In this document: positions 9,839 through 48,186 of the stretch, in pieces
How positions within the stretch are numbered: position 1 is the first letter of the stretch
Layout of the letters: each line of letters starts with the position of its first letter
NCBI GenBank assembly: GCA_030390025.1
Contig: CM059431.1
Span: forward strand, 155,746,001-155,810,000
Source: Squalus acanthias
Lineage: Eukaryota
Reading direction: 5' to 3'
Length of the DNA: 64,000 bases
The notes under the pieces: model-generated
What the model was told of the DNA's origin: nothing
What the model saw: only the letters and a program-made list of their open reading frames with translations
Database searches by the model: none
Position numbers and translations under genes: made by a program

Positions 9839-9842
9839 CATT

Positions 9843-14329: not shown

Positions 14330-14680
14330 TCAATATCCTGCCAGGCTGGGTATGGGGTTTCACAGTGTATCGGGACCTGCCAGGGGTGTATGGAGATAAG
14401 CAGTGTATCGGGATTCTGCCTGGTTTGTAAGTGGTTCACAATGTATCAGGAGCCTGCCAGGTATGTACGGGGTTTCAAAGTGTAAGAGTTTACTGACAGG
14501 TGTTGATGGGATTTCAAAGTACATCTGGAAACTTCAAGTTATGTATGCAGTTCCACTTTTTATCGTGATATGCCAATTGAGTGAGGGCTTTCAAAGCGTA
14601 TAATAATCCTGCCAGGAATTTATGGGTTATCACATTTTGTCGGTATCATGTCAGGCATCTACGAGTTTAACAGTGTACCA
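14330..14680. repeat. ~37 bp minisatellite, same family, resuming after the RTE tail
   Basis: gtatggggtttcacagtgtatcgggacctgccagg units. Confidence 0.8.
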
Positions 14681-14934
14681 AGCGGGATTGAAAAAATGTG
14701 GACATGAACACTGTGTTTTATTGTATAATTTGGAAAGTGCGATTTCGGAGAAGAGGGCGAAGGAGTTGTTGTTGTTTGCCAACACTACTTGCAATGCTTT
14801 CTATTAAAGGCAGATATTTAAATTCAGTACCCTGAACTTAACCTAGATCAAGTAAGTAGACACGAAAGTACACTGTAAACTAAGTTATCTGAATACAACT
14901 TAAATTAAATTTCATTAAATAGAACAAGGTCAAA

Positions 14935-17900
14935 TATTGATGGCAGTGTAGGCGGTGTGCCGCAACTGATGCAGGTGGGCTTTTGAGGAGAGCATTGTGA
15001 TCCCGCATTTGCAGTAAGTGCCTGAATCTTGAGGATCTTAAGCTCAGAGTTTTTGAGCGAGAATCTGAGATGGAGACATTGCAGGGCATCACGGAGGCGG
15101 ACAGTTACCTGGAAACTTTGATCCAAAAGGCAGTCGCACCCCTAAGGTCTGGTACAGGTTTGGTTAGTGGTCAGGGAATGGAGGGTGTGACTGCGACTCA
15201 GGCAGGTAAGGCAAACTCAGATATAGTGCTGCAGGAGCCTCGGCCTTTACGCTTGCCCAACATGTATGAGGTTATTGCTGCCTGTGTAGATGAGGGAAAA
15301 GCCTGCCGGATGGATTAGCAAACTGATCGTGGCACCACGGTTCAGGAGGTCATTCATGTGGGGGGAGTGAAATGAATGTAGTTGTGGTAGGGGACAGTAT
15401 ATTCAAGGGGATCAATACTGTTTTCTGCAGCCACGACCGAGAGTTACGAAGGTTGTGTTGCCTGCCCAGTGCCAGGGTTAAATACATCTCCTCGCGGTTG
15501 TAGAGCCACTTGGAGTGGGAGGGGCAGGTTACAGTTGGATTGGTCCACGTAGGAACCAACGACATTGGTAGAACTTGGAATGCGGATTTGCTGAGGGATT
15601 TTGATGAGCTAGGATCCAAATTTAAAAGCAGAAATTCAAAGCTAATAATAATTGGATTGTTATCTGATTCACGCGCAATTTAGCATAGGGACAGACAGAT
15701 TCGATGTTTAAATACGTGGCTCAAAGAGTGGTGTGGCAGGAAGGGTTTTCAGTTCTTGGGGCACTGTACCAGTACTGGGGAAAGAGGGAGCTGTTCTGTT
15801 GGAACGGGCTTCACTTACACCGGGCTGGGACCAGTGTCATGTTGAACCTAATAAGTAGGGAAGTAGACAGAGCTTTAAACTAATGAAAGATGTTGGAAGT
15901 TTCAGGAAAGAGTACATTTAAAAGCAGCGATAGATTTGGTAACTATACGCAGAGTGCATCAGGAAGGTTGAGAGAGAGCAACAAAGGTAATACGGCATCC
16001 GCGACTAAGGTGACATCAGGGAAGAATAGAAATAAGTCAAAGCAAAATATGCGCGAAGCATTTGCAACAAAATAGATTAATTATTAGCGCAGATGGATAT
16101 TAACAGGTTTGATCTAATAGCCATAACGAAGACGTGGTTGCAAAATGGCCAAGGTTGAGAACTAAATATCCCAGGATACTTAACTTTTAGAAGAGATAGG
16201 CAACATGGAAAAGGAGCAGGAGTAGCCCTGATAATAAAGGATTGTATAAAGGTTGTAGAGAATAGGATCTTAGCAACGATAATCAAAAAGTAGAAAAGTT
16301 TGAGTGAAGCTAAGAAACATCAAGGGGTAGAGCACGTTGCTGGGAGTGATTTATCGGCCGCCAAACAATAGTTGTAATGAAGGGAAGTGTATGAATCAAG
16401 AAATTAAAGGCGCATGCAACAAGGGGAATAAAGTGTTCATGGGGGACTATTATCTACATATAGACTGGGCAATCCAAATTGACAGTAATAATGTGGAGGA
16501 CGGTTTCATGGAATCGCTGCAAGGGAGGTTTCTATATCAATATGTTTACGAACCAACCAGGTAACAGATTATTTTAGATCCAGTATTGTGCAATGAGAAC
16601 GGACTTATTAATAACCTTGCAGTAAAGGGGCCTTTAGGGAAGAAAGACATGATGAAAATGTTATTATTGACTTTGAAATGCTTACATAAATCCGAAACTA
16701 GGGTCTTAAATCTAAACAAAGCAAACTACTTAGGTATGAGTGACGATTTGGCCAAGGTAGATTGGGAAAATACGTTAGAAGGTATGACAGTGGACGAGAA
16801 ATGGCTGGCATTTAAAGAATTAATACATAATTTACAACAAATACACATTCCATTAAGGAAAAAAAAACAAAAATAAAAGTGCCCAACCGTGGCTAACAAG
16901 AGAAGTTAAAGATAGTATTAGATCAAAGGAAGAGGCGTATAATCTTGCCAAAGAGTAGTAAGCCTGAGGATTGGGAGAATTTAACAATTCAGCAAAGAAG
17001 GACCAAGCAATTGATAACGAAATGGAAATAAAATATGACAGGAAATTAGCGAGAGATATAAAAACAGACTGTAAAACTTGTATATGTATGTTAAAAATGC
17101 AGAAATTAGCGAATGTAAATGTGATTTCTTTACAGGCTGAGACAGGGGAAATTATAATCGGGAATAAGGAAATGGCTGAGAAATTAAAAAAATACTTTGT
17201 GTCTGTCTTCACGGAGAAGACGGAAAAAACTTCCCAGATATACTGCAGAACCAATGAGCTAGCGAGAATGAGGAACTGAAAGATATTAGGATTACTAAAA
17301 AAAAAGGTACTGCAGAAATTAATGGGACTGAATGCCGATACAATCACTGAACGTGATGGCCTGCATCTCAGGATTTTGAAAGAGGTGGCTATACAGATAG
17401 TGGATGCATTGGTTGTGATTTTCAAAAATGGTATAGATTGTGGAACGGTTCCCACGGATTGGAAGGTAGCAAATGTAACACCAATATTTAAGAAAGGAGT
17501 GAGAGAGAAAACGTGGAACTACGGACCAGTTAACCTGACATCAGTAGTAGGGCAAATACTGGAATATCTTATTAAGAACGTGGTAGCAGGGCTCTTATAA
17601 AATAATAGTAGGATTTATGAAAGGGAAATCGTTTGTGATGAACCTGTTAGAGTTGTTTGAGGTTGTAACTCGAAGAATATATAAGGGGGAAGCAGTGGAT
17701 ATGTTGCATTTGGATGTTCAGAAGATATTCGATAAGGTGCCACACAAAAGGTTATTAAACATTATTAGGGCTCATGGGATGAGGGGAATAAACTAGCTTG
17801 GATTGAGGATTGGTTAACGGACAGAAAACAGAGAGTAGGAATAAACGGGACATTTTTGGGTTAGCAGGCTTTACCTAGTGGGGTACTGCAAGGATCAGTA

Positions 17901-19203: not shown

Positions 19204-19313
19204 TTATCAAAATAAGAAGTTGCCATAGTTGGGAGTGCAGTGGAGATTTATTGCACCCACGAAAAACAGGAATATGCATGTTGAAAACTGCGGTTCAAAT
19301 CGTAAAACACATT

Positions 19314-20056: not shown

Positions 20057-20154
20057 ATTATAGGATCAGAGCAGCAGAGACTTTCATCCGCCCTGTATTC
20101 AGTTCTACTGAACTCAATGAAAGGCAACATCGGACCGAGCGCATAACAGGCAGC

Positions 20155-22065
20155 ACAGAATCATAAAATGGTTACAGCACAGAAGGAGGCCATACGGCCC
20201 ATCGTAGCCGATGTCGGACCTCTGCAAGAGCACTTCAGCTAGTCCCACTTCCCCGCCCTTTCCACGTAGTCTCGCACATTGTTTTCTGCAGGTATTTATC
20301 TATTCCCTTTTGAAAGCCACGATTGAATCTGCCTCCACTATACTATCAGGCAGCGCATTACAAATCCTAACCACTCGCTGCGTAAAAAAGCTTTCCTCAT
20401 GTCGCCTTTGTTTTTGATGCCTATCACCTGAAATCTATGTCCTCTGGTTCTAGATCCTTCCGCTAATGGGAACAGTTTTTCTCTCTCTCGACACTGTCTA
20501 AACCCCTCATGATTTTGAGCAAATCTATGAAATCTCGTCTACTCTAAGGAGAATAACCCAAGCTTATCCAGTCTATCCACGTAACTGAAGTCCCTCATAC
20601 CTGAAACAATTCTTATAAATCTTTTCTACAATCTCTCAAAGGCCTTCACATTCTTCCTAAAGAGCTGTGCCAGAATTGGACACAATACTCCAGTTGAGGC
20701 CGATCCACTGTTTTATAAATAATCATCATAACGTCCTTGCTTTTGTATTCTATGCCTCTATTAAGGAAGCTCAGGATACTGTATGTTTTTTTACTGCTTT
20801 CTCAAACAGCCAACTTCAAAGAAATGTGCACATATGCACCCAGATCTCCCTGCTGATACACCCCCTTGAGACTTGTGCCCTTTAGTTTATATTGCCTCTC
20901 CTCGTTCTTCCTCCCATAATTTATCACTTCGCAATTTTCTGCTTAAAATTTCATCTGGCAGGTATCTACCATTCCACCAGCCTGTCTATGTCTTCTTGAA
21001 TTATATCACTACTCTCCTCAATGTTCACTATCCTTCAAAGTTTCGTGCCATCAGCAAATCTTGAAATTGTGCCCCGTACAAACATGTCCAAGTCATTAAC
21101 ATATATATCCAGAAAAGCAGTGGTCCCAGTACTGACACGTTGCGGAATACCACTGTATACCTTCCTCCAGTCCGCATAACAACCGTTCACCACTACTCTC
21201 TGTTTACTGCCACTCAGCCAATTTCATATCCATGCTTCCACTGCCACTTTTATTCCTTGGTGTTCGACATTGTTGGCAAGCCTATTAAATGGCACTTTAG
21301 CAAACGCATTTTGGATTTCCATGTACACCACATCAAACGCATTACCCTCACCACCCTCTCTGTTACCGCATCAGAAAACTCAATCAATTTAGTTAAACAC
21401 GATTTGCTTTTGCCATTCCGTGCTTACTTTCCTTAATCAATCCACACTTTTCCACGTGATTGTTAATTTTGTCCCTGATTATCGTTTCTAAACGTTTCCC
21501 TACTACCGAGGTTAAACTGAATGGTGATCTGTAGTTGCTCGGTTTATCTTTAAAGCCGTTTTGGAACAAGGGTGTAATAGTTCCAATCCTTCAGTCCTCT
21601 GGCACCACCACCGTATCTAAGGAGAATAGGAAGATTATGGCCAGTACCTCCGCAATTTCCACCCTTACCGCCCTAAGTATCCTAGATGCATCCCATCTGG
21701 TCCTGGTGACTTCTCAAATTTAAGTTTAGACAGCCTTTCGAGTACCTCCCCTTTATCAAATTTATATTCCATCCAGTATCAAAACTACCTCCGCTTTCAC
21801 TTTGACTTTGACAGCATCTTCTTTCTTTCTGAAGACAGATGCAATGTACTCATTTAATACCTTAGCTATACCCTCTGCCTCCATACGTAGGTGCCCTTTT
21901 CGTTCTTTGATCGACCGCACTCATTCTCTTACTTGCCGTTTCCTATTTATATGCCGATAGAATGCTTCTGGATCCCCTTCCATGTTAGCTGCCAATCTAT
22001 TCTCATATTCTCTCTATTCCCCTCTTATATCCTTTTTTCCTTCCCGTCTTAAATTTCTATCTTCA
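20155..22065 (-). mobile_element. CR1 LINE 3' part, degraded; paralog at 33790-35690
   Basis: Begins with an antisense CR1 3' UTR (agaatcataaaatggttacagcacagaaggaggcc) followed by RT remnants. Confidence 0.85.
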
Positions 22066-22319
22066 GTTGCGATACAGACCGTTTTTCGGCGATGAAATAA
22101 TGCAGGCCGTATCTCGCCGGATTAAAATTGAATTCAACTGATTTTCGAATGTGTTTTATAACGGTCAGAAAATGCAATTGCGCATCTTTTGTTTACTGCC
22201 CATGCAGAATTTAATCCTCACAGACTTTAATTTAAATTAAAGTAATTGCGATAAATCATGAACGTTTTATTCTTACAGTAAACACGATCTTTTTGAAGTT
22301 AGATTTGGACACCACCGAC

Positions 22320-22509
22320 CTTTCAAGTGATGTTCTACCTCTGCACCACTGTTCTGTATTTCTGACAATGTCGCTTTCAGCTTGGGTTTCGTATCCTGCA
22401 GTTGAAGAAATATGTTCCACATTATTCTTTGTGCCCGAGCTCCCACAGTGCTGACAATCTGTCGTGAAGCATCGCTTCTGAGGTGTCTTTCAACAAGGTT
22501 TTTGAATCT
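22320..22509 (-). CDS. NLR N-terminal death-fold/CARD-like exon B, module 1 (phase 0 to 1)
   Basis: Splice sites ttttttag|AGA and AAAG|GTCGGT; 190 nt, open. Reads RFKNLVERHLRSDASRQIVSTVGARAQRIMWNIFLQLQDTKPKLKATLSEIQNSGAEVEHHLK. Joins the NACHT exon in frame. Confidence 0.8.
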
Positions 22510-25500
22510 CTAAAAAACATATTGCAATCATATTGAGTCATGCAATGTAAATAATCAGATAAATAACATATTTTCACTGACTCCTATTTTGGGATGAATG
22601 AATAGAAAAGCTCACAATCGAGTGACCAAAAGATGAGCTAAACAGGTAAGTTTTAAGGAGCGTCTAAAAATAGGAGAGAGTGGTTGGTAGCCAGAGAGAA
22701 TTAACTAAGGAACTTCAGAGCTTAGGGCCGAGGCAGCTGAAGGCACTGTGAATAAAATAGGGGTTGCGGAAAAGGCCAGAATTGGCTGAACAGTTGGATT
22801 ATCGATGGTTGTCGGGCTGGAGGAGTTTGCAGAGATAGAGTGGAGCAGCGTTAAGTCATCCAGGGAATTTGTATTTTCTCAGCTGACAGAGGAATAGGGT
22901 AAGGTGCTGATTAAAAGGGGAAAGCTTACGTTTGCAGGAATAGGATTCGAACAAAATTAGGGATTATTGGTTGTTAATAACAGTAATATTTTGTAATGCT
23001 AACGATGTGGTTTCAGAAACTCAAATTTCAGAAATTGAAAACCATAAAGTTGAGTTTGAAATTAGTGCTGGCCAGAAGCACGAAATGGGCTGATAGCGAA
23101 TCGGTGGCCCACTTTATGCCGCGTCCGATTTTCTTTCTATTAACTTCCATGAGCCTTGAATTCACTCTAAGTGTCAGCTTCATTAATCGAAACTGTTGCA
23201 TAAAGTTATCAGTGACTCCCTCATGCCCTATATGAATATTGTCGTTTTCTTCTCTCTGCAGCTGTGTTCTTTGATTAACTGTTTTAGTTGATGTTTTCAT
23301 GAAATGTGACAATTGTCTCTAATTCTGTAACCTGCCATTTATTCATTTCTTGCATTTGAACGTGTTCGCTTCTGTTTTATATTATTTATGTTTACTTGAT
23401 TTGTTTTATATAATCAGCCCTGCAACCCTAGATTTAATTAAAAAAACATTTTAAATCATATTCTATGCAAGTCCAATATATTGTAGTTTGTGCTTGACCT
23501 CTTTTATTCTCGTATAATTTGTGTATCTTTTATGTCAATATTCTCCTATTTGGCAGCTTCCTATTGCGTCAACGCGACTTTTTCTGATCATTAACCTGCC
23601 AAAATATCTGGGCTAGCACTTTAGTTTCGTTTTAATTAGATTTATTCCTGTAAAATGTATATTGCTTTGATTGTCCCGTTATCGTTTACGATTCATATGA
23701 ATCCAAATGATATAATATTTTCCTAGATGTTCTACTACTGTTACCTCACCTCTAGTCCCTCCCCACTTCTAGAAATTGATCCAATTCTCATTCCTTCCAT
23801 GTTGTTCTAAAACCGTAGCAATCTAAACAACGTAAGCTGTAGGCTGCAAATAACATGCCCTTTCTCCCACACTTATCTCATTTCTATTCCTTGGATATTA
23901 AAAGCAGAAATCACTCTGTTACTGTTATTGCTGCACTTTCTCCAACGTTTCACTATTTATTTTATCTATCCATTGCCCAAGATTCGATGCATGATAATAG
24001 CACCTTATTATTCTGTAACACCAAACGTATAGATTAATTTTGCGAAGCATTCCTTATACTACTCCTGAGTTCCCGTGCTCCAATTGAATCTTTCAGTAAT
24101 TCCTTCTCCCTGTCTTAAAAAAAAAACTTGATTCCCCATTAATATTTAGTAACATGACACTTTAGCTCCTAATCTTGCCCTTACATAAGCCAGATAGATA
24201 TTAATATCTGTGCATCATAATTTATAGCATATCCCCAGAAACCCTGGGCCTTCAACTAACCAGCTATATTTGGAATAGTTTGTATATACATGTGTTAGGC
24301 AATTGTAGGAGGTATTCGGAAAAGCGAGCATGTGGACAGTACAGAGAGTCCATAGATTGTTTTTATGCAATGGGTCATTATGGCAGTCTTGACGTCAGAG
24401 GATGATGGCCGATCAGAGGCCAGTATTAGCGATGACACTGAGCAGTGAGCCGAAGTACGTGCAGGACCTGAGCTGGCCAGGAATCAAGGCATAATTTTTC
24501 ATATCCCATAGACTGGATGAATGTTGCGAGTCCTTGGTGATGCGTGAGACAATGCAGATTGTGAGAGTTTAGAAATTCAGAAAATGTTTAGTTCGATGTA
24601 AATATTGTGGCAGGGAAAGTGTTAGAACGGCAGAGAGAGGCAACCATGCTGTGATGTGCAAAGTAGCAGAGAAATCGATCAACGATTTGGTTACGTTCAC
24701 TAGAATTCACCAGAGATCCGCGCCACCGGCAGTGTCACAAACTAATCAGATGGTTCACTGGAAACAAAGGGCTGATTTGATAGAGAATAAAGGGAAACTC
24801 AAGGGCTTTAATGCCACAGTTTAGCTTTTATACATCAGTAAATTTCTTCCCGTGAGATTAGAAGTATGTCGCTATTACAAGTTTTATCTCACTCCAGAAT
24901 TTCCTTTGATGCTGAGCTGAGGACGCATGATGGCTGCGCTGCTAATAACTTATTAAATTATTAATTTCGATTCCTCTGGGCTTGGCCCGTGCAATCATGT
25001 AAATTGGGGTAATTGATCAATTGATAGGACAGCCTGTATGTCCGCTTTCCGAAACTAAAATAAACCAATCCCATGCACAAATCTGGGCACTGAATTACCT
25101 TAACAGCGAGACGTTTCACAGTGAATTCGCAGACCTGGTTTTCTTCCTGGCCACCCGGCTGTTGATTGTCGCCGTATCGCCGATGGTAATGGCATTAAAT
25201 ATCAAGGGGGGCTGATGTAAGTCTCTCTTGTTGGAAATGGTCATTGCCTGGCACTTGAGTTGCGCAAATGTTACTTGCCACTTATCCGGCCAAACCTAAA
25301 TGTTGTCCAGGTATTGCTTCATACGGGGATGGACTGCTTCATTATTGGTGGAATTTCGAATGGAGCTGAACACTGTGCAATCATTAGTGATCAGCCGCAA
25401 TTCTGACCTTATGATAGATGGCCATTGAAGAAGCACTTACCGATAATCGGGCCTTGGACGCTGCCATGAAGCAAACATAATTATACCATGAGATGATGTT

Positions 25501-25722
25501 CTCTCATTATTTAATGCTTTAATTGAAGGTTAAAAACTGAATAATTTTCCAGTGATATATTTCAGAGGAGCACTTCAAATGTTGTTTTAATTTGCCTCGA
25601 TCTCAATTTCAGCGTCAATATTCAGTACTGCTTATATCGATGATTTGCACAAAATACAGTTAATCTAACTCTGACTCATGACTCATTTAACACTATGAGA
25701 TTTCACCATATTTGTTGCATAC

Positions 25723-25883
25723 CTCATGATGTGCTTCAGTAAACACTTCTCCATCAAAAAGCTTCTGACTAACAGCCTCCACGTTTTCTTCAATTGATTG
25801 CTCCAATCTCTGACGGCAGCACTCGATAATTCTCCACAGCTGGATATCCGTGTAGCTCTGCAGCATCAGAAAGGTTTTAGTAT
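25723..25883 (-). CDS. NLR N-terminal death-fold/CARD-like exon A, module 1 (phase 1 to 0)
   Basis: Splice sites ttcag|AT and GAG|GTATGC; 161 nt, open. Reads (D)TKTFLMLQSYTDIQLWRIIECCRQRLEQSIEENVEAVSQKLFDGEVFTEAHHE. Confidence 0.8.
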
Positions 25884-26267
25884 CTGAATTTGAAGTCAAG
25901 GAGTAAATGAGAACAGATTAAAATACAGTGCCCGCTATAAAACAATGAATACTCTGGACCAATTGATACAGCAACAGCGTTTATTAAAGTCTTTCAAGCA
26001 GTCATACCGACAGTGGCGCCTCACAGAGGAGGAATTAAGAATCAATGCTGTCTTTTTTTGGTATAGTTAGGAGGAACGACCCAGGCCTTGCAACATTCGG
26101 ATTGGTTAAAGTAAGTAAGAAGTAGAAAGAGGGGGGCCTTAGAAACGGAGTCAGTGAGATTGACATCTTTGCCTGGAGTGCCGAGCAGACGAACCGATAT
26201 ACTAGAGACCACAGCGAGGGAGAGGTGTGTAACAGAGCGAATGTTAAGAAGAATGTAGCGATAAGAT

Positions 26268-28961: not shown

Positions 28962-29224
28962 ATGGGCGGGGCCGTAGATTTATTTGAAGATGAGTAGGAC
29001 CATTTCACACATGATCAATTTGGGAGAAGAAGAGAATGTAAGTCAGTTACCCAGTGGTTTACGGATGAATGGAACTGAGGGTGAATTTCAATTTAAGCAA
29101 TAGAGCTGTGGAAAAGCTGGAGCTAGGCCCAAATGTCGTTTGAGGTATCATTTCTAAAGCTCACAGAAGCATCGATAAAGTACCAGCAAATATTCTTATG
29201 GAGTGCGTGTACAGAAAAAATAAC

Positions 29225-29332
29225 CTTTAATTGTTCCTGACGGTAATCTGAGACTCAAGGTTAGATCTAATGCCTTGAAATGAGCAGATGCTGTTGAATA
29301 ATTAGACATAGTCGTGACTTTCACGTGTTTGC
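29225..29332 (-). CDS. Possible extra linker exon (phase 1 to 1), module 1
   Basis: Splice sites ctcttcag|GC and AAAG|GTTATT; 108 nt, open (GKHVKVTTMSNYSTASAHFKALDLTLSLRLPSGTIK). A paralog of equal length is at 43189-43296. The donor is weak. Confidence 0.3.
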
Positions 29333-29965: not shown

Positions 29966-30187
29966 CTTTTTCTCCACCGAAAATGTAACTCTCTTCTTCA
30001 ATATTTGTATTTCCTGCATCACAAGTGCCCGGACTAGTGCCCGCATTGTTTGCCGCATCAAGCTGTGCGTAATCTATTTTTGTCCACCAAAAAGTCGCAA
30101 AGATTCCTAGTGCGTCCAGTAGTATTGCACCGATGAATGCGAGGGGAATTGTGAATGGTTCGTCCATTATTTCAGTATCGTCAATCA
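29966..30187 (-). CDS. Exon with a predicted transmembrane helix, module 1 (phase 1 to 1)
   Basis: Splice sites gatttacag|TG and AAAG|GTACAT; 222 nt, open. Reads (V)IDDTEIMDEPFTIPLAFIGAILLDALGIFATFWWTKIDYAQLDAANNAGTSPGTCDAGNTNIEEESYIFGGEK. The ATG has a good Kozak context (ATAATGG). Confidence 0.7.
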
Positions 30188-33160: not shown

Positions 33161-33199
33161 TGATTATAGTCGAGCAACGTAAAAACTATGCTACTGTTC

Positions 33200-33510
33200 C
33201 CATGTCAGATGTTTATGCAGATTTACAGCGTATCGGGATCGTGCTAAATTTGTATGGTGATAGAGTTTATTGGGATCCTGCCAGATGAGTCTCGGAGAGT
33301 TAGTGTAACAATTTTTATCCAGATGTGCACAGTGAATAAGAGCCTAACTGGATACCTCCAGATATGTACGTGGATTCACAGGGTATCTGCATCCTTTCAG
33401 CATGGGGTTTCACAGTGTATCAGCATCCTACCTGTTCAGTCTGGACCTTCAAAGTTTAACGGCTACCGGCCAGATGTGTATGCTGTTTCACGGTGTAATA
33501 GGATGCTGTA
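33200..33510. repeat. ~37 bp minisatellite, copy at the start of duplicated module 2
   Basis: atggggtttcacagtgtatcagcatcctacc-type units. Confidence 0.7.
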
Positions 33511-33789
33511 GCTTGTCACAAAATCGTATTTTTATATTTGGACATATACTTGAAGATAAATGCATTTATATATATTAGTAAAGTAAGATGTTGCCATATT
33601 TGGAAATGCAGTGGAGCTGTATTACACCCACAAAAAGCAGGAATGTGCATGTTGGATTCTCGGCTTCAAATAGGGAAACACATTATCGGACCAGAGCAGA
33701 ACACAAATCGCACAAACTTCAATTCTACCGCTATTGAGTTCTATTGAAATCGATGGGAGGTCTCATCAGGCCGAGAGCCTAACGGACAG

Positions 33790-35690: not shown

Positions 35691-35962
35691 GCGATACCGC
35701 TCGTTTTCGGCGAAGCTATAGTACAGGCGGTATTGCATCGTGCGCCTATTGTACACTTCGCCCGAATAAGCTTGGATATTACTGAATACCGGGCGTGCTT
35801 TAAAAGGTCGGCAAATGTGAATCCGCCTGTTTTGTTTATCCACCCATGTAGAATTTCAAACCTCACAGATTAACTTAAATAAGGTCTTCGCCATAAATAA
35901 TGAACTTTGTTACTCTGACCGTAAACACGATCTTTTGCAAGTTAGATTGGGACACCACATAC

Positions 35963-36155
35963 CTTTCATGTCATTTTTTTCCTCTGTACCACTGTTCTGT
36001 ATTTCTGACAATTTCGCTTTCAGCTTGGGTTTTGTATCCTGCAGAAATATGTTCCATATTGGTCTTACTGCTCGAGCTCCTTTTTCTACCACGGTATTGA
36101 AAAGGTGTTGTGAAGCAACGCTTTTGTGGTGTCTTTCGACAAGGGTTCTGAATCT
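35963..36155 (-). CDS. Death-fold/CARD-like exon B, module 2 (phase 0 to 1)
   Basis: Splice sites ttttttag|AGA and AAAG|GTATGT; 193 nt, open. Reads RFRTLVERHHKSVASQHLFNTVVEKGARAVRPIWNIFLQDTKPKLKAKLSEIQNSGTEEKNDMK. Confidence 0.78.
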
Positions 36156-36277
36156 CTAAAAAAAAATGCAATCATATTGAGCCAAGTAACAGAATGATCA
36201 GAGAAGAGACGTCTTTTCACTTTCTCCCTCTCTTTATGAGATGAATGAATAGAAAATCTCACAATCGGGTGACCAGA

Positions 36278-36730
36278 CATATGAGGAGAGATTGGGTCGA
36301 TTGGGCTTATACTCGCTGGAGTTCAGAAGAATGAGAGGGGATCTCATTGAAACTTATAACATTCTAGGAGGACTAGACAGACTAGATGCAGGAAGGATGT
36401 TCCCGATGGCCGGGGAGTGCAGAACCAGGGGTCACAGACTAAAGATAAGAGGTATGCCATTTAGGAAAGAGATGAGAGGGAATTTCTTCACCCAGAGAGT
36501 GGTGAACCTGTGGAATTCTCTACCACAGAAGGCAGTGGAGGCCAATTCATTAAATATATTCAAGAAGGAGTTAGATATATTTCTTAATGCTAAAGGGATC
36601 AAGGAATATGGGGAAAAGGCAGGGACAGGGTACTGAATTTGGATGATCAGCCATGATCGCATTGATTGGCGTAGCAGGCTCTTGGGGACGAATGGCCTAC
36701 TCCTGCTCCTATCTTCTATGTTTCTATGTT
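36278..36730 (+). mobile_element. CR1 3' fragment, specific to module 2
   Basis: ORF LGLYSLEFRRMRGDLIE..FFTQRVVNLWNSLP, followed by a 3' UTR and ttctatg tail. Confidence 0.9.
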
Positions 36731-39423
36731 GTTCAAAGTCTTAAGAATTAAGGAGCTTGTTAAAGGAAAGGATTATAGAAGGAATTTCAGAGTTTCGGGC
36801 CAAGGCATCTGAAGGCTCTCATGCCAATGGTGAGGCGAAGAAAATCGGGGATGAACAAATGCCCAGAATTGGATGAGCAGAGAGATCACGGAGAGTTGCA
36901 GAGACAGAGAGTAGCATCTTTGAGGCATCCAGTGAAACTCTAAATTCTCAGCTAATAAATGGAAAAGTGGAAAGTGCTGAATAAAAGGGGGAAAGTTAAT
37001 TTTGCAGAAATAGGATTCCACCAACATCAAGCATTATTGGTTGTTAGTAACAGTAATGATTTGAAAAGCTCACAACGTGGTTTCAGAAACTCAAATTGCA
37101 GAAATTGAAAAATGCAAAAATGCGTGTGTTTTTTTTGTCTAGTAGCACGAAAGGGGCTGATAGCGAATCGGTGGTCTCCTTTACGACGCGTCGGATTTTT
37201 ATTCAATTTACTTCAATGAGCCTTTCATTCATTCCAAGTATCACCTTCATTCATCGAAACATTAGCAAAAGCTTATCAGTCACTCCTTCATGCTCTATAT
37301 GAAACTTGTAGTTTGCATCTCCAAACAGCTCTGTTCTTTTATTAACTGTTTTTTTGAGGATTTATGAAATATGATAATTGTCTCTAATTCTGACACCTGC
37401 TACTGATTCGTTTCATACATTTTGAACGTTTTCGCTTCTATTTTATATTACCCATGTTTCCTTGATTTGTTTTACTTAATCAGCCCTTCTATCCTATATT
37501 TATTTTAAAATCTATTTTTTTTTGTCTTTTTCTATGCAGGTCCAAGCAACTCTCGTTTGTGCTGCACCTCTTTTATTCTCGTGTAATTTTTGTATCTTCT
37601 ATGGCAATCTTCTCCTATTTGCCAGATTCTTATTGCTTCTCTGCGTCTTTCTCTGATCATTAACGTGACAATAAATCTGGGCTAGTATTTTAGTGTCGGT
37701 AAAAATAGTTTCATTCCTGTAAAATGTATAATGCTTTGATTGGCTCGTTAAATATTAGAGTTCATATGAATCCTATTGATATCATATATTCCTGGACGTT
37801 CCACTACCCTTAGATCAACTACCACTCCCTCTCCGTTTCTAGAAATTAATCCAATACTCATTCCTTCCTTGTTTTCCTAAAACCATATAAATATAAACAG
37901 CGAACCGGACAGGCTGCAAATACCATGCCTTTACTGCAACACTTATTTTACTTCTATCCTTTGGATATTTAAAGTCACCAGTTACTGTTACTGTTATTGC
38001 TGCACTTGCTCCATTTTTCTATCTTTCTATTCTTCTATCCATTTCCCACTATTCGATGCATGATAATAGCTCCTTTATTATCCTGCAACCCCAAACTTAA
38101 AGGTTAATTTTGCGAAGCATTCCTTATATCAGTCCTGAGTTCCCGTGCTGCAATTCAATAATTTAACAATACTTTCTCCGTATGTTCTTTAAAACTTGAT
38201 TCCCCATTAATGTTTCGTAACATGACACTTTAGTTCCTAATCCTGTCTTTACCAAAGCCAGATAAGCTATTCATGTCTGTACGTCATAATTTATAGCATA
38301 TTCCCAGACAATCTGTGCCTTCAACTAACCAGCTATATTCGGAAAACTTTATATATGCTTGTATTAGGTAATGGTAGGAGATATTCGGAAAAGCGAGCGT
38401 GTGGACATGATAGATGAGTCCAGAGATTGTTTTTATGGAATCGTTCATTATAACCCTCTTGACGTCAGAGGATGATAATTGAGGAGAGGCCAGTATTAGT
38501 GACGACACTGAGCAGTCAGCCGAATAAGAAGCACAACCTGCGCTGAGCAGGAATCAAGGCAGTAGTTTGCATAACCCATAGAACGGATGAATGTTACGAG
38601 TCCTTTGTGATACGAGATATAATGCATATTGTGAGCGGTTAGAAATTAAGAAAGTGTTTATTTCGATGTAAAAATTGTGGCAGGGAAGGTATTAGAAAGG
38701 CTGCGAGAGGCAGCCATGCTTCGAAGTGCAATGGAGCACAGAAATCGAATCAATGATTTAGATAAGTTCACTACAAATTTCTAGAAAACCGCACCAACGG
38801 CAATGGCAAAAACCAATCAGATGGTTCACTTGAAAAAACAGGGCTCCTTTGATAGAGAATGAACGGAAACTCACGGCCTTTAATTCCGACAGTTTAGCTT
38901 TCATACGTCAGTTAATTTATTCATGTGATATTAGATGTATGTCGCTATTACAAGTTTTATCTTTCTCCAGGTTTTCCACTGCGGCTGTGCTGGGGACGCA
39001 TGATAGAAGTGCTGCTAGTGCTGTCTCATTAAATTATTAACTCGATTCGTCTGGGCTTGGCTCGTGCAATCCTGCAATTTGGGGTAATTGATCAATTGAT
39101 AGGAAATCCTCTATGAATCAACTTTCAGAAACTGGAGTAAATCCATCCTCTGCAGAAATACGGCCACTGGAATTATCTTAAAAGCCGCACGTTTCACAGT
39201 GAATTCACAGAGCTGGTTTTATTCCTGTCCTCCAGGATGTTGATGGTGGCTGATTCGCCGATGGTAATTCCATTAAATATCAGGGAGAGATGATGTAACT
39301 CTCTCTTGGTGGAGATGGTTATTGCCTGGCACTTCAGTTGCGCGAATGTGACTTGCCACTTATCCGGCCAAACCTCGAGGTTGTCCAGGTCTAGCTTGAT
39401 ATGGGGATGGACTACTTCATTAT

Positions 39424-40246
39424 GTGGACAAGTGCGAAGTTATCCACCTTGGGTGCAGGAACGGGAGGGCAAATTATTATTTAAATGGAAATAAATTGGG
39501 AGAGGGGGAAGTACAGAGAGACCTGGGTGTTCTTGTACACCAGTCACTGAAGGCGAGCATGCAGGTGCAACAGGCGGTCAAGAAGGCAAACAGTATGCTG
39601 GCCTTCATAGCAAAAGGGTTGGAATACAGGAACAGGGATACCTTGCTGCAGCTGTACAGGGCACTGGTGAGACCACACCTCGAGTACTGTGTACAGTTTT
39701 GGTCGCCTCATCTGAGGAAAGATGTTCTTGCCATGGAGGGGGTGCAGCGGCGATTCACCAGGCTGATACCAGGAATGGCGGGATTGACTTATGAGGAGAG
39801 ACTATGTAGTTTAGGGATGTACACACTGGAGTTTAGAAGATTGAGAGGGGACCTCATAGAAGTGTATAAAATTCTGACAGGTCTAGACAGACTAGATGCA
39901 GAAGGAATGTTTCCCTTGGCGGGTGAGAACAGAACTAGAGGACATAATTTAAGGATAAGGGCTAAACCAATTAGGACAGAAATGAGGGGGAATTTCTTCA
40001 CTCAGAGGGTGGTGAACCTGTGGAACTCATTGCCACAGAGGGCAGTGTACGCCAGCTCATTAAATATATTTAAGAGGGAATTAGATATATTTCTACAGGC
40101 AAAAGGGGTTAAGGGTTACGGAGAGAAGGCGGGGACGGGATACTGAATTGGAGGATCAGCCATGATCTCATTAAATGGCGGAGCAGGCTCGAAGGGCCGG
40201 ATGGCCTACTCCTGCTCCTATCTTCTATGTATCTATGTATGTATGT
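39424..40246 (+). mobile_element. Young 5'-truncated CR1 LINE, specific to module 2
   Basis: Intact 240 aa ORF2 C-terminus. TSD attat at 39419-39423 and 40247-40251; empty site at about 25340 in module 1. Confidence 0.93.
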
Positions 40247-40614
40247 ATTATTGAAGCATTTGCGAAGGAGCTGAACACTGTGCAATCATCAGAGACTCGC
40301 CCCAGTTCTGACCACATGAGGGATGATCATTGAAGAAGCACTTAACGATAGTTGGGCCTAGTTCGCTGCAATGTAACAAACATAGTAAAACCATGAGATG
40401 CTGTTTTCTCATTATTTAACGCATTAATTGAAGATTAAAAACAAATTAAATTGCCAGAGATATATCTCCGAGGTGCACTTAAAATTACGTTTTCATTGGT
40501 ATCGGACTGAATTTCAGAGTCACTATTGAGTGCTGGTTATATCGTTGGGTTCCACGGAATACTGTTAATATAACTCTGACTCATGACTCATTTAACACCA
40601 TCTATTTTGCATAC

Positions 40615-40775
40615 CTCATGATCTGTTTCAGTAAACAGTTTTACATCAAAACGCATCTGACTTACAGCCTTCACGAATTCTTCATTTGAATGTTCTGGTC
40701 TCTGACGGTAGCCCTCGAGAATTGTCGGCAGCTGGATATCCGTGAAGCTCTTCTGCATCAGTAAGGTTTTAGTAT
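40615..40775 (-). CDS. Death-fold/CARD-like exon A, module 2 (phase 1 to 0)
   Basis: Splice sites tttcag|AT and GAG|GTATGC; 161 nt, open. Reads (D)TKTLLMQKSFTDIQLPTILEGYRQRPEHSNEEFVKAVSQMRFDVKLFTETDHE. Confidence 0.78.
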
Positions 40776-41834
40776 CTGAAATTAATATCAAGGTGTAAAT
40801 GAGAACAGATTAAAATATTGAGCCCGCTATTAAACAATGAATTATCTGGACCAAATGATATAGCAACAACATTTCTTAAAGCCTTTCAAGCAGTGATAGC
40901 GCCAGTGGCGCCTCACAGAGGAGGAATTCAGAATTTAAGCTGTCTCTTTTCGGTATAGTTAGGAGGAACGACTCAATGCTTGCAGAATTCGGAGGCTGGT
41001 TAAAGTTAGTAAGAAATCGAAAGAGGGGTGTTATTAGGAATGGAGTCAGTGGGATTGACATCTTTGCCTGGAGTGTGGAGCAGAAGAACCGATACACTAG
41101 AAAACTCCGCGAGGGAGAGGTGTGCAACAGAGGGGATGCTGAGAAGACTGTAGGGATAAGATGGGTAGAGCTGTACATTTATTGGAAGATGAGTAGGACC
41201 ATTTCACACATGATCAATTTGGGATAAGAAGTGAATGTGATTCAGTGACCAAGTGGTTTACGGACCTGTGGGTGAATTTGAATTTAAGCAATTGAGCTGT
41301 AGACAAGCTGGAGATTATAACGGGCTAGGCCCAAAGGTCGTGTGAGGAATGGAGTCTAAAGTTCCCAAAAGCATGGATAACGTACAAGCAAATATTCTTA
41401 TGGAAGTGCATGTCCAGAAAATAACCTATGATTGTTCCTGACAGTGTTCTGAGATTCCAGGTTAGCTTTAAAGCCTTGGAATCAGCAGATGCTGTTGAGC
41501 AATTAGACATAGTCGTGACTTTCTCACATGTTTGCCTGCAGAGCTAATAAACAATATACAGAGATTTATAGTATGAAACACTAAATGCAATTTCATTCGT
41601 GCTTCCATTTTTCCTTCTTTATTAAAGGAAGACTAAATTGTGAAACAGGAAATGAGAAATTGAAATATTGTGAAGCCAACAGGCAGTCACACTAAACTTT
41701 ACGAATATCAATACACCGAGTACAGGAAACAAAACTTTGGGAAAATAGTTTTCATTATCAATCGAAAATAATCACACAAAGACAAATACTTTAGCTTAGA
41801 CATGACTGTATCTAGTACAGCTCCGCAATTAAAT

Positions 41835-42830
41835 CTCCTCTCAACCTTCTCTGCACTAAGCAGAACAAAACCAGCTTCTCCAGTCAATCAACATAACCAA
41901 AGTCACTCATCCCTGGAACCATTCTTGTAAATCTTTCCTGCACCCTATCTCAGGCCTTCACATTCTTCCTAAAGAGCGTTGCCCAGAATTGGGCACAATA
42001 CTCCAGTTGAGCTCGAGGGAGTCTTTAATAAAGGTTCATTATAACCTCTTTGCTTTTGTACTCTATTATTTTATTTATGAAGCACAGTCTCCCGTAAGCT
42101 TTTTAACAACTTTCTCAACCAGCCCTGATAACTTCAACGATTTGTGCACAAATACCCCCAGGTCCCTCTGATCATGCAGCCCGTTTAGAAATGTACCCTT
42201 TATTTAATATTGCCTCTCCTAGTTCTTCCTACCAAAATATATAATTTCGCACGTATCTACGTTAAATTACTTCTTCCACAGGTCCGCCCATTCCACCAGC
42301 CTGTCTATGTTTTCTTGAAGTCTGCCATTTTGTTCTCACTCTTCACTATACTTCCAAATATTGTGTGAGCTGCAAATTTTGAAATTGTGCGCGGTACACC
42401 CAAGTCCAAATCATAACTATATATCCAGAAAAGCAGTGGTCCTAGTACCGACCCCAGGGGAACACCTTCCTCCACTCCGAAAGACAACCGTTCCCCAATA
42501 CTATCTGTTTATTGTCACTTAGCCAATTTCGTATCGAAGCTGCCACTGTCCCATTTACTCCATGGGTTTCAACTTTGCTCTCAAGCCAATTAAGTGGCAC
42601 TTTATCAAACGTCTTTTGGAAGTCCATGTACACCACGTCAACCACATCGCCCTCAAAACAGCCCCCCCCCAACCCTCTCTGTTACCGCATCAAAAAAATC
42701 AATCAAGTTAGTTAAACACGATTTGCCTTTGAAAAATCCGTGCTGACTTTCTTTAAGAAATCCGAACTTGTCCAAGTAACTGTTAATTTCCCCCCGATTT
42801 ATTTGTTTCTAAATGAGTCCCCATTAACGA
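41835..42830 (-). mobile_element. Internal CR1 RT fragment paralogous to about 34180-35170
   Basis: Contains DFQKTFDKVP, and shares a diagnostic short deletion with the 34.8 kb copy. Confidence 0.85.
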
Positions 42831-42835
42831 AGTTG

Positions 42836-43592
42836 CGGAGCAGAAGAACCGATACACTAGAGACCACAACGAGGGAGAGTTGTGTAACAGAGCGGATGTT
42901 AAGAAGACTGTATGGATAAGGTTGGTGAGGCCGTAGATTTAGTTGAAGGTGAGTAGGACCATTTCACACATGATCAATTTGGGATAAGAATTGAATATAA
43001 GTCACTGACCAAGTGGTTTACGGAACTGAGGGTGAATTTGAATTTAAGCAATAGAGATGTCGATAAGCTGGAGTTTATGACGGGCTAGTCCCAAAGGTCG
43101 TTTGATAAATCGAGGATAAAACTCACAAAAGCATGGATAAAGTACAAGCAAATATTCATATGGAAAGGCATCATCAGAAAAAAATTACTTATAATTGTTC
43201 CTGACGGTGATCTGAGACTCCAGGTTACATTTAATGTCTTGGAATCCGCAGATGCTGTTGAACAATTAGACATAGTCGTGACTTTCACATGTTTGCCTGA
43301 AGAGCTAATACATAACATAAAGAGATTAATAGTACGAAATACTAAATGCAACTTTATTAGTGCTTCCATTTTTCCTACTTTATTTTCAGGAAGACTAAAT
43401 TCTGCAACAGCAACGGAGAAATGGAAATATTTTGAAGCCAACAGGCAGTTACACTAAACTTTACGAATATCAATACACCGAGTACAGGAAACAAAATGTT
43501 GGGAAATAGTTTTCATTATCAATAGAAATTTTCACACAAAGACAAATACTTTAGCTTAGACATAACTGTAGCTAGTACAGTTCCACAATTAA
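42836..43592. repeat. Local direct duplication of about 41078-41832
   Basis: ggagcagaagaaccgatacactaga ... tagtacag.tcc.caattaaat is present twice in module 2 and once in module 1. Confidence 0.88.
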
Positions 43593-43921
43593 ATGGACCC
43601 GAGCATAAAACGTCAAAAGGATGGGTCGGGGAGTGTTTTGGAGAAAGTCGTGAGAGGTAGCTCTACTAAATAAAGACAATATCTCATCAACAACAATAAC
43701 AACACCCTTAACGTGATATAAAGTACTCCAATGCAACTCAAGGAAGTATTATTGAGGCATGAACACACGCATGCTGGCCGAAGAAAGAGATTGTAAGGGT
43801 TCAGGAAGAATTACATTGATTGTAGTCAAAAAAGGGAGTTTTAAGCAGACGCTTAAGGGATTAACCGGGCTCTAGAAGCGGAGGTGTTTATGGAGGGAAT
43901 AACAGGGTGCGAGGCATATAC

Positions 43922-44149
43922 CTCTTTCTCCATCAGAAATGTAACTCTCTTCTTCAATATTTGTATTTCCTGCATCATTAATGCCCGGAGAAGAACACGC
44001 ATTGTTTTCCTTACCCAGCGGTGTGTCATCATTTCTGCCATCATGTGTCTGCTTTATCGAAGAATAAGGGCCAAGGAATATTAATAGCCCCAGCAGTGTT
44101 AAAACGAGTAAGCTGTATCGTCCGAACATTATTGCAGTATCGTCAATCA
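43922..44149 (-). CDS. Exon with a predicted transmembrane helix, module 2 (phase 1 to 1)
   Basis: Splice sites aatttacag|TG and AGAG|GTATAT; 228 nt, open. Reads (V)IDDTAIMFGRYSLLVLTLLGLLIFLGPYSSIKQTHDGRNDDTPLGKENNACSSPGINDAGNTNIEEESYISDGER. Confidence 0.7.
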
Positions 44150-45206
44150 CTGTAAATTATACAACAACTGTTGAGCTGTTGTAATTCATGTAAACTTTGA
44201 CAATTAAAACAATCTAAATCAATGTTAAAAGCTCCAGACGCAATAACTTCCGTTTATCGTTTGCGTACCGCATTGTTCAGTTTACTTTTTAATATCCTCT
44301 GCTGTTTTCACGCTTTTTCTTTGTCAGGTAATCGCAATCTTGTGCATTTCTACACTTTGCCTGAATAACGGGTTTATAAGGTCTCACCTAGAGGTTTATG
44401 AGAGAAGAATGCGAACTGTGGCTCGGCTGAATGTGCACTTATTTTCATCTATTAGTTCAAAAGTTAGCATTATTCTCACACAACAATTAGCAATCGGTAA
44501 TATATTCCAGCCAATACTTATTGGGATATCGCCATTAAATCTGCTTTTGGGTTCTGAATCGTTAGGATTTTCCTGTTATCATTAAAATCGACAAAATTCA
44601 CTGCTGATGCTGTTTGCTTCTGCTACAAGTTTGGTCTGCTTAGAGGCAGAAGCCTCATTTTCCCAATTTATATTCCCACAACAGTAGGATGTACTTTTAC
44701 AGATATGCGCTTGCTCCTGATTCCCAACTACAGACTCAGTCATTCTAATTAACTTGTTTTTATAACTGCTGGTAGAAATATATGAACCATTGATTGAAAT
44801 ACTGAATTAACCGGAAGTGGTTATGAAATCTACTTTTAAATTGAAGTCTCTTCAGTTACACTTGAAGTCTTTTAAACGTCTAATAATAAATCGTTCGTGC
44901 TTTAATTGTACATTGTTATTTTGTGACTAAATATGCTATTACTTTTAAATCCGCCGATTTACCAGCATTTTTAAGAACTGTTCAGACTTCTAAACATTGT
45001 TCTTCGATTTCCCTACTAATTATGAATCAATAGCCGTATTTTAAATATACGAATTGAAACGTTATCGCAACAATCAACGCCGATCCTGTCAACAGTGGAA
45101 TTAAGTTTACCATTAAGTAATGGGATTAGATTAATGGAGTGGTAGGGGAATAAACTGACTCCGAATGGCTGGAAGCTGAAGAAGGACTTTAGAATACGTT
45201 GCAGAT

Positions 45207-45319
45207 AGTAGATTGGCAGTTAGGATCAGATCAGCCATGATCTTATTGAATGGCGGAGCAGGCTCGAGGGGCCAATTGGCCTACACCTGCTCCTATTTCT
45301 TATGTTCTTATGTTCTTAT
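45207..45319 (+). mobile_element. Very short CR1 3' terminal insertion
   Basis: Near-identical to 53047-53160. Empty site gcagataaacactc at about 31240. Confidence 0.88.
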
Positions 45320-45850
45320 AAACACTCTAAAATGAAGTATTAATGTTGCAGATATGAATCAGCTTTAAATTACTTTGCCGTGCCTGGTACTTATTGTAAT
45401 TTCCCTTTGCTAGTTCTTGCCAGAAACAGAGTAAAGAAAGTAGTATCCTTTGCAATCAGTGACCACATTGGGCGTCTACCGTTGGCAATATTATTCAGTC
45501 AGTCCGTTCATGCTGCAGCACCTTTTACCTGACTCAGGTGCTCTGCAATAAACCACGCTCCTCATTATTCCGTTTGTCTTTTAAGCCCAACTACTAGCGG
45601 ATCAACGCCATATTCATTCATAATTCGCGTTACTTCCGTACTCTACTTCCTGCAGGTTTCTGCCCACTTCATCTTATTTTCTTTTTGACATTCCATGCTT
45701 CACTTCCTTCTAATAATTCACATTGCTGTTGCTTTTCCCTCCTTTCTCCCCATCGGCACCGAAGCCTCCTCTTGAACTTCCTCACTTAACCGGGATCCTT
45801 CTGTGATTTATCTGAACGTAATTTGTCAACTGATAAAAGTAATCTCTTCC

Positions 45851-45964
45851 CTTTATTGACAGGAATGTTGCAGGGGCCGTCTACTGCGGCGGCCGAATCA
45901 GTATCCACCGCCTGACACATTTCTACGCAATTAGTTTCCAGTAGCACAAAGATCAAGAACGTGG
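45851..45964 (-). pseudogene. Leader exon of module 2 with both splice sites mutated
   Basis: 114 nt paralog of 31774-31887. The acceptor is AA instead of AG and the donor is GG instead of GT. Confidence 0.6.
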
Positions 45965-48186
45965 TTAAAATGAAAGAAAAACTATTTAACATCTAAATGA
46001 ATGACCAAGAGGGTTAGCAAGTTGCATTGTGAACTTATCCAGCCTAAACCTGTCCGTAATATGAGCCGATATACACTGGAAATTTCTTCCCACGTTTCCG
46101 CTAATCACTTGCTCAAACAGGAATTGGATTTGATCATGTACCCACTTGACTGTGGACCGTGCCAGCACACACTTGGGGTTATTTTACCTTTTTCCGATAG
46201 TGGTAGACGGGGGATAGTGGCTCGGAGATAAACCTCTCGAGGTCGCATATCGTCCATGTTACACGAGCGTCATAAGCTTAACTTACCCCCAATAGTTATG
46301 GATGGATTCTTCCCGTTATCAGAATTCACAGGGGATGTTGAAAATGTGTTCCTTAGAGACTTCGCCATGTGTCAATATGTAGCTTAGTGGAATTTCAAAG
46401 CTATGGTAATAATGTCGCATTCACGGACAGGCTCTGTTATCCCTCGGCCTCGGTTTCCAGGTTTGCTAACCTGGTTTTGGTTCTGGCACTGTAGGTACAA
46501 ACATAGTAAACTGCAGAATTGTATTAGTTTATTCATTGCATGTATGAGGAGAAATAGCATAGGAGTGGAACTTATTGGCGAGCTCTTCCTAACCGCCAGC
46601 ACAGGAAAGATTGGTCGAATGGGCGCCACCGATATTAAGTTGCTATCCATCGATTTTTACGGTCATTTTTGTAACAGGAGTAGGCGTTTAAGAACCTTGA
46701 TCATGTTCCGCCATTCAATTAGATAATTGCTTATCTGCGTCTTAACTCCATCAAATCTACTTTGTTCCGTATCCATTAATATGATTCGCCATCCAAAATC
46801 TATTGAAGTCAGGTTTAAAATTAGGATGCGTCCATTTGCAACAGCAAATTTCTGATTGGACTATTGGAGGACAAGACCATGTTTCTAATTGGTCAACTTG
46901 TAGGACAAGACTCACCCAGCAGTTTGCTTGCAATATGTAATTAGATCCTGCCTGCCTGAGTAATCAACATCTTTGCAATATGTATTTGATCCATTCATTT
47001 TGACAGCCAGGCTCCAGAGCAAACAGTGCTAACACTACTGCTTTCAGAGAACAGACATAGCTCACCCTCCAGGGTTACGAGCTCTCACAGCGTTTACACT
47101 GTTATGTTCAGATAGGAAGGGGTGAGGACATGGATGGAATTCAAAATAAGGATGAACTTTTTCAAATCAAGCTGTGGTGGACCATGAGCCAATCAATGTT
47201 TCCGCCATTTTTGTGGGTGCGACTCCTTTTAGGGCTGCGCGACTCATAAAAACTATTGCATGAGCGGGCTGATCCAGGTCGAACACTGGGAGAACGAGAT
47301 CCATCTTCCCATCTGGATCACCTTCTTGCTCTCATCTCCGCCCTTTAGAACTGGATCTCATTAATCCCCCTCCTCACTTTTCTCACAGTGCTCCGCACAA
47401 CAACCTATTGACCTGCCCCCCGGAGTGGGATATGATGGCCCGCTTCCCGGCTTCCTGACCTTCACCCCCCCAACAGGTTCCTGACATTGTCTCTCGTCGA
47501 CATCCTGAAATTCCCCGCCACTCCCGGCACCCCGCCGAATCCCTGAACTTCTCTTCTCGGATTCCTGACCTGCACCCCATACCCCGACAGAGGTCCTGAC
47601 CTTTCCTCTATGAGTTTCTGACCTTCGCCCCAGCCCACTACCATCCGAACATTGACCTTCTCCACAGGGAGCCGAGGAAAGCTTGACAGTTGAGGCTGCA
47701 CATGTGCGATTCCTGTGGGGCGGGAAACTTGAATTCTGAATAAAGGGATCGTGTATGAGTGGAGTCTGTGTGTGTGAGGGCGTCTCTGTGTGGGGTGCGT
47801 GTGTGGGTTTGTCTATGCTAGTTTGCCAGAAGCATTTTATTCCCTTCAACTTCTCGAATTGACGTGGTATCTCATATTGAAATGGAATACTTTACACTTG
47901 AGTTGAATACGAATATATCTCGTTCATAGGATATTTTATTTGTAAGTTCGAAACAATCTAAAATACATTTGTTCAAGTATATTAACTTGTTGTGATGCAC
48001 AAACATCGGTGTGGACTAAAATTGCAACAGTAAACTCATTTCCATTGTAAGTACCATGCGTAATATAAAGTTTAATTGCTAATACTTATCAGTAACAACG
48101 TTATCTGGAAGTTAAATTTGGAATAATTACAGTGCACCTATTCATAACTGTTATAATACCTAACCATATTGAATGTAATTGTTTAA

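Follow-up and report, generated by a model that had tools for sequence, protein, structure and literature searches.

A duplicated CARD-like module with two distinct hydrophobic exons upstream of a broken NLR gene in Squalus acanthias, and a candidate membrane-spanning architecture for its intact relatives

Vertebrate NLRs and CARDs are treated as cytosolic. NOD2 carries two tandem CARDs that are adjacent and cytosolic, and CARD16, CARD17 and CARD18 are soluble, single-domain proteins. According to the available part of a recent preprint, the latter three are likely duplicates of caspase-1 (bioRxiv 10.1101/2025.06.19.660630). Among other animals, anthozoan transmembrane NLRs have three to five transmembrane (TM) segments clustered at the N-terminus, and the accessible text of the paper describing them calls other metazoan NLRs exclusively cytoplasmic (PMC5094078). 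In addition, the excerpts at hand report one sponge NLR with an N-terminal TM signal (PMC3879445) and an expanded “NLRP-related” NLR family in the whale shark (PMC8455134). Searches of the open-access literature listed no work describing shark NLRs that carry CARDs on either side of a TM segment. Here, we analyze an NLR gene of Squalus acanthias within a 64,000-nucleotide stretch of its 3.7-Gb genome (hereafter the window; C7, that is CM059431.1:155746001-155810000), in which a hydrophobic exon and a CARD-like module have been duplicated upstream of NACHT. Our best explanation, to which we give roughly an even chance, is that an intact gene of this kind would encode signal-CARD-TM-CARD-NACHT-LRR, with clustering of the outer CARD driving oligomerization and a short form starting at the TM exon being possible, and that the copy in the window is dead or truncated.

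The exons lie on the minus strand in the order L2, T2, A2, B2, L1, T1, A1, B1 and NACHT (L, “leader”; T, hydrophobic exon; A and B, first and second half of a CARD-like module), and two open LRR-type exons follow just outside the window (C7, ~155743175-155743730). T2 (44015..44149, ATG at 44129) encodes a signal-like hydrophobic segment and is followed by the distal module, composed of A2 (40615..40775, 161 nt, phase 1-0) and B2 (35963..36155, phase 0-1), both open. T1 (29966..30187, in-frame ATG at 30167) encodes a TM helix of ~22 residues and is followed by the proximal module, composed of A1 (25723..25883, 161 nt, phase 1-0), which weakly matches Pfam CARD, and B1 (22320..22509, phase 0-1), which has a 9-nt in-frame deletion in a nearly invariant stretch. 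The NACHT-WH-HD2 exon (6162..7881) has an acceptor at 7881 that agrees with its paralogues. A preliminary description of this DNA had called this exon broken, and four lesions bear that out: stop codons at 7457-7459 and 7054-7056, one inserted nucleotide near 7296 and one missing nucleotide near 6171. In its open pieces, Pfam finds PF05729 (E 8e-9), PF17779 (E 2.5e-6) and, below the cut-off, PF17776 (E 4.5e-5). The window gene is an NLR by its NACHT, WH, HD2 and LRR exons, but a pseudogene copy without an intact frame.

Self-alignment of the window gave two collinear blocks, 20096-32796 (module 1) and 33732-46884 (module 2), at 74-84% identity, with an intron divergence between them of 0.19 observed and 0.22 corrected. 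Each block carries insertions private to itself: module 1 has a reverse-transcriptase element at ~26270-28960 (presumably a LINE), and module 2 has insertions near 36290-36765, 39430-40245, 41160-42930 and 45207-45318. The level of identity and these copy-private insertions rule out an assembly artefact. The proposed duplication in the same order and strand (T, 44149 and 30187; A, 40775-40615 and 25883-25723; B, 36155-35963 and 22509-22320) is thus confirmed, as is the presence of a single NACHT exon. The duplicated DNA starts near 20.1 kb, however, and not at 14.3 kb as had been suggested, where 14330-14680 is a 38-39 bp minisatellite. The two modules are also not equivalent. Exons A and B are 83-85% identical between modules and the introns 81%, whereas T1 and T2 are 74% identical and belong to distinct classes. 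As predicted, B2 ends (35963) in phase 1 and joins in frame to 31887, 30187 or 7881; the resulting chains are open up to the first NACHT stop (488, 557 and 297 aa, respectively). The small exons are indeed all free of stops, although they are not pristine, with T1 lacking 18 nt and B1 lacking 9 nt.

The difference between the hydrophobic exons is central to our interpretation. From the DNA examined, we recovered 21 T copies: 12 T9, 4 of T1 type and 5 of T2 type. T9, the older-looking type, is 129 nt long and keeps its donor in 12/12 copies; a protein search with it returned the 12 T9 copies and two weak T1 matches, and nothing else. Both T9 and T1 encode a helix of 22-25 residues followed by basic residues. 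The T1 paralogues have a full TM segment with a charge of +3 to +4 after it, and a single TM with a basic, putatively cytosolic flank is found in three of the four T1 copies. The exception is the window copy, in which an 18-nt in-frame deletion removes the basic cluster found in the three paralogues and keeps the helix. In T2, an Arg stands ahead of the core, the uncharged stretch spans 12-13 residues in 4/5 copies (21 in the window), and the net charge after the core is −3 to 0 with no basic tail. All five T2 copies share the inner donor (after 44015 in the window) and are intact up to it; an alternative in-frame donor lies after 43922. By the positive-inside rule, T2 would orient the following chain outward and T1 inward, so that a read-through protein could keep its NACHT in the cytosol. 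Hydropathy and charge fit a signal sequence for T2, and the longer run of the window copy could make it an uncleaved anchor.

The arrangement recurs elsewhere in the cluster. T2 lies upstream of T1 at all four loci holding both, with one complete CARD module between them in the window, none at C7:156.6 Mb (B only), two at C7:157.3 Mb and none on contig C2044. This pairing stems from one event, and the four loci are not independent. By their proximal modules, the window, C2044 and 156.6 Mb group together in one clade (100/99); the 42-module tree excluded CARD modules that contained stops, had lost splice sites or lacked a partner exon, and the NACHT tree left out two NACHT exons with non-fitting acceptors. 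The duplication is thus not special to the window gene. It is an inherited feature of a subfamily within a cluster of at least 111 exon-A matches, up to at least 17 of them in a row before one NACHT; among the copies extracted, 50/57 A and 51/55 B exons are intact. Judged by its sequence, the best candidate for a working signal-TM-CARD-NACHT-LRR gene is on C2044 (260099-288722), where L-T2-T1-A-B-NACHT is intact with LRR exons after it. Its leader before T1 is deleted, and T2-T1-A-B-NACHT is open over 808/808 or 839/839 codons. The C2044 NACHT is 96% identical to the broken NACHT at C7:156.63 Mb, and the contig may be an alternate haplotype.

A second line of evidence comes from the catshark. 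A search with the B-exon profile retrieved one protein among 7999 scored candidates, XP_072354261.1, an “uncharacterized protein” of Scyliorhinus torazame (RefSeq model, 1405 aa). In one open reading frame (ORF), it has a weakly hydrophobic start, four family modules, a TM segment, a fifth module, NACHT and LRR. The five modules score 82-118 bits, four lying before and one after its only strong hydrophobic segment. This segment aligns in register with the T profile, also over the residues preceding the Met, and its 13.5 bits are reached by 0/1000 full and 0/1000 segment-wise shuffles. The catshark model resembles the window in its hydrophobic start, CARD-like repeats, T-homologous TM, subsequent CARD, NACHT and LRR, with homologous modules and NACHT at 40-49% identity. 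It differs in having four pre-TM repeats instead of one, in an N-terminus unrelated to T2, and in being intact. A single transcript with signal, ectodomain and TM would be compatible with the frames at the window and C2044 and with one gene model in the catshark. The earlier proposal of a single ORF through both modules gains support from C2044, with T2 followed by T1 and no leader between, and from the catshark CARDs on both sides of the membrane segment. The order is better taken as signal-CARD-TM-CARD-NACHT than as the proposed repetition of TM and death fold. Other searches added no relatives: exon A and T2 had no match in protein searches, the T profile had 0 matches among 1.84 billion representatives, and Atlas searches gave no usable match.

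The catshark homologue also underlies the names used here. We call the window modules CARD-like because they are homologous to a protein that passes the PF00619 cut-off (40.4 bits, best stretch 641-711), and the “shark-type” NLR label is likewise due to this homologue. A1 matches PF00619 at E 0.021 (15.3 bits, under the cut-off of 23.9), and at E ≤ 0.1 a CARD was found in 4/23 A exons and 0/19 B exons. Comparison of the A and B profiles with the PDB found no CARD. A single-sequence model of one catshark repeat was all-helical and poor (pLDDT 57, pTM 0.35), and had no fold match at E ≤ 0.001.

Compared with described systems, the window gene shares with NOD2 the presence of two CARD-type modules before NACHT-LRR, but NOD2 has no signal or TM segment, and its CARDs are the adjacent, cytosolic ones noted above. 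With CARD16/17/18 it shares the tandem duplication of the 5′ part of a CARD-bearing gene within a cluster, as far as the available preprint text goes (bioRxiv 10.1101/2025.06.19.660630); those genes derive from caspase-1, whereas in the window the module comes with a hydrophobic leader and can be read in frame into NACHT. Like the anthozoan transmembrane NLRs, it has predicted membrane segments N-terminal to NACHT, but the accessible account of those proteins describes no CARD on each side (PMC5094078). The window gene also departs from their clustered pattern, having two separate hydrophobic segments with a CARD module between. The whale shark “NLRP-related” family is likewise an NLR expansion in a cartilaginous fish; compared by description, the available portion of that source describes no TM segments or CARD arrays, and of two occurrences of “transmembrane” in its main text at least one is unrelated (PMC8455134). 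The best solved relatives of the catshark NACHT are NLRP-type proteins.

From exon order, phases, lesions, paralogues and hydropathy, we infer the splicing, topology and function that an intact gene would have. Specifically, in a working ancestor both modules would have been joined by splicing into a single protein that crosses the membrane. T2 would serve as its signal sequence and place the distal CARD-like module in the lumen or outside, whereas T1 would halt transfer and leave the proximal CARD, NACHT and LRR in the cytosol. Binding or clustering of the outer CARD(s) would then bring the cytosolic NACHT-CARD parts together and produce a signal. The number of outer CARDs would be variable (0, 1 or 2 in the window genome and 4 in the catshark model), and a shorter form from the ATG of T1 may coexist. 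The window copy most likely died recently, at ~0.03 substitutions per site.

Several observations weigh against a membrane-spanning protein of this kind. CARDs are known as cytosolic domains. An in-frame ATG is kept in 20/21 T copies, and two loci read T-CARD(n)-NACHT with a single T; T can therefore be a first coding exon. Long CARD arrays for which no T was found directly precede NACHT, so that an outer position is not required of CARD arrays. The two T exons flanking an array in the T9 subfamily share polarity. The assignment of T2 as a signal peptide draws solely on hydropathy and charge, and the weakly hydrophobic catshark N-terminus is not homologous to T2 (−1.8 bits). In addition, XP_072354261.1 is one automatically generated model, in which tandem genes could have been fused via symmetrical phase-1 exons. 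N-glycosylation sequons are not enriched before the catshark TM (5 in 533 aa, versus 7 in 660 aa of NACHT-LRR), and neither window module has one. No transcript was found to join B to T. We considered 12 sequencing runs, whose RNA status was guessed (shares 0.05-0.18). In four of them, aligned over 29800-46300 at 82% likeness, reads piled on repeat insertions; T1 and L1 had no coverage, and the joints listed included no splice junction, which speaks neither for nor against.

The observation that T can begin a coding sequence raises the possibility that the whole 5′ end was duplicated and that each T starts its own transcript, spliced to the shared NACHT. The product would be a TM-CARD-NACHT-LRR anchored by its N-terminus, with its CARDs in the cytosol and no need for double read-through. 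We consider this unlikely. The ATG count noted above, the in-frame joining of B2 to 7881, and the cluster genes with only one T (T-(CARD)3-NACHT and T-CARD-NACHT) all agree with it. Furthermore, ~900 bp upstream of each leader is duplicated along with the leader, and, judged by flanking DNA, the upstream position of T is ancestral and the T9 exons at array ends were inserted later. However, the signal-like polarity of T2 would be expected to push a directly spliced NACHT across the membrane, the T exon is internal in the catshark model, and both T exons survive intact on C2044, where no leader separates them. The locus at C7:154008588-154058942 reads T9-(CARD)3-NACHT-LRR with a frameshifted NACHT, a layout with one TM at the N-terminus.

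The leader itself does not behave as a conserved coding exon. As had been noted, the segment is present twice, but the module 2 copy, L2 (45851..45964), has AA for AG and GG for GT; it is open and likely non-coding. L1 (31774..31887) has AG, GT and an open frame, a combination found in one of eight window-type copies and in none of the other seven. We reject the leader as a conserved coding exon, since it is usable in 1/8 copies and L2 lacks both splice sites; L1 may be a 5′ untranslated region, a terminal exon or neither. CpG content singles out no promoter. AATAAA is present in 21/22 leader copies, and splicing from the T9 exon into the leader segment gives a stop after three codons in 6/6 cases tested. 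Two orphan leader-like segments lie 15-16 kb downstream of NACHT exons (C7:155825776 and 156611225), the latter with a remnant of T-flanking DNA; each could be a 3′ element or what is left of the 5′ end of a gene since lost.

In line with the earlier suggestion of a NACHT-less decoy, the locus might still make a CARD protein, secreted or membrane-tethered, that would act as a decoy much as CARD-only proteins do. For the window we regard this as quite unlikely. Such a protein could be T2-CARD ending in intron read-through or in the leader segment, or T2-CARD-T1-CARD. All four clear lesions, equal to ~0.03 substitutions per site, fall in NACHT, and the small exons would survive the period since NACHT death by chance with P 0.045; the probability of all four hitting NACHT is 0.10, which is not significant. 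Against this possibility, the window has lost the T1 basic cluster, three codons of B1 and both L2 splice sites, and a full-length transcript, in which LRR introns lie downstream of the first stop, would probably be degraded. We found no terminal exon dedicated to such a product. Read-through past B2 meets a stop within 17 codons, and the nearest AATAAA or ATTAAA is ~1.06 kb on. The suggestion is thus marginal here (P 0.045-0.10) and fares better at a sister locus (C7:158020697-158089491), which keeps T2 and nine intact CARD modules (9/9) and has lost T1. There, the DNA past the last B matches the window B2 intron and breaks off before L1-T1. Both NACHT copies near this array are dead (one inverted), with five older lesions in common, and the array itself has 0 lesions against 6-12 expected since NACHT death (P 0.0016 to 5e-6). 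The array appears to have stayed intact after NACHT loss, unless it is spliced to another, untraced NACHT, and the locus is a candidate for a secreted or tethered poly-CARD protein. Five further arrays are bracketed by two T9 exons (C7 154.97-155.03, 155.22-155.30, 158.32-158.40, 158.83-158.95 and 159.18-159.28 Mb; outer T9 inverted at 158.40 Mb). In 4/5, the last T lies ~2.1-2.3 kb after a B exon, and its splicing to the leader, with the stop after three codons, would give a tail-anchored poly-CARD protein.

Selection was assessed in two ways. The dN/dS (nonsynonymous to synonymous rate ratio) comparison between module copies, suggested earlier as a check, cannot tell live from dead: window modules 1 and 2 give 1.46 (interval 0.72-3.84), the median over 767 pairs within the family is 0.65, and the branches leading to three intact NACHT exons have values of 0.66, 0.76 and 1.18. 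Under a neutral survival model, with indel and substitution rates taken from introns and with frames and splice sites scored, survival over 0.22 divergence has P 0.0065 for module 2 (T2+A2+B2) and P 0.0026 for module 1; both modules were therefore constrained for most of their history. A post hoc excess of replacements in the distal module (43:6, p 0.011; p 0.10 when compared with 16:7 in the proximal one) is only a hint, which depends on a weak sister pairing (94/39) and is not significant in the nine-module array group (p 0.29). We consider it very improbable that module 2 is a partial copy without function whose frames are open by chance, in a cluster where exons are copied constantly. The A/B exons being barely more alike than the introns, the dN/dS of the module pair and the abundance of exon-A matches would fit such a copy, but the low neutral survival of its frames and splice sites, the intactness of T2 to the inner donor in 5/5 copies, and the dN/dS near 1 of intact NACHT exons argue against it.

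The surrounding DNA shows further rearrangement and repeats. The 38-39 bp minisatellite family occurs in the window at 9531-10827, 14329-14680 and 33345-33509, and also between the nine-module array and its inverted NACHT; these are possible rearrangement points. Reverse-transcriptase elements at 11038-14325 and 53279-55334, which we take to be RTE-like, are 86-87% identical, and at ~11972-13185 the former is split by another element, which is bounded by a 75-bp inverted repeat. The T2-A2 intron contains a 760-bp internal duplication (41074-41834 and 42834-43594, 86.5%) also seen in paralogues. At C7:157254859-157255533 and 157299228-157299902, an inverted exon A lies beside a truncated exon A of a minus-strand array. 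Genome-wide, there are at least 150 matches to the NACHT exon, mostly at ~45% identity and on many contigs, which point to a much larger NLR family beyond the C7 cluster.

What the window holds is an old, family-wide feature in a broken copy, and it would add a new form to the known NLR architectures should the splicing be borne out. The broken copy matters as a pointer to its family and not as a working gene. Within the cluster, the number of CARDs per gene ranges from 0 to at least 17, and NACHT-less arrays are kept after NACHT loss. Extending this further, we consider it possible, though doubtful, that sharks have a family of single-pass membrane NLRs with a variable outer or luminal row of CARD-like domains that signal via CARD-NACHT-LRR on the inner side, and alongside them poly-CARD partners that lack NACHT and are secreted or tail-anchored. 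In mammals, ASC specks are known to be released, according to the part of the source available (PMC9174887), and by analogy such specks as a ligand are a lead rather than support. If the membrane-spanning reading is true, an NLR would join surface or luminal sensing to NLR oligomerization in one chain, and CARD-like domains on both sides of the membrane would represent a new role for death folds, as an ectodomain that might, for example, sense released inflammasome filaments or pathogen proteins. The intact paralogue on C2044 and the catshark model make this reading directly testable.

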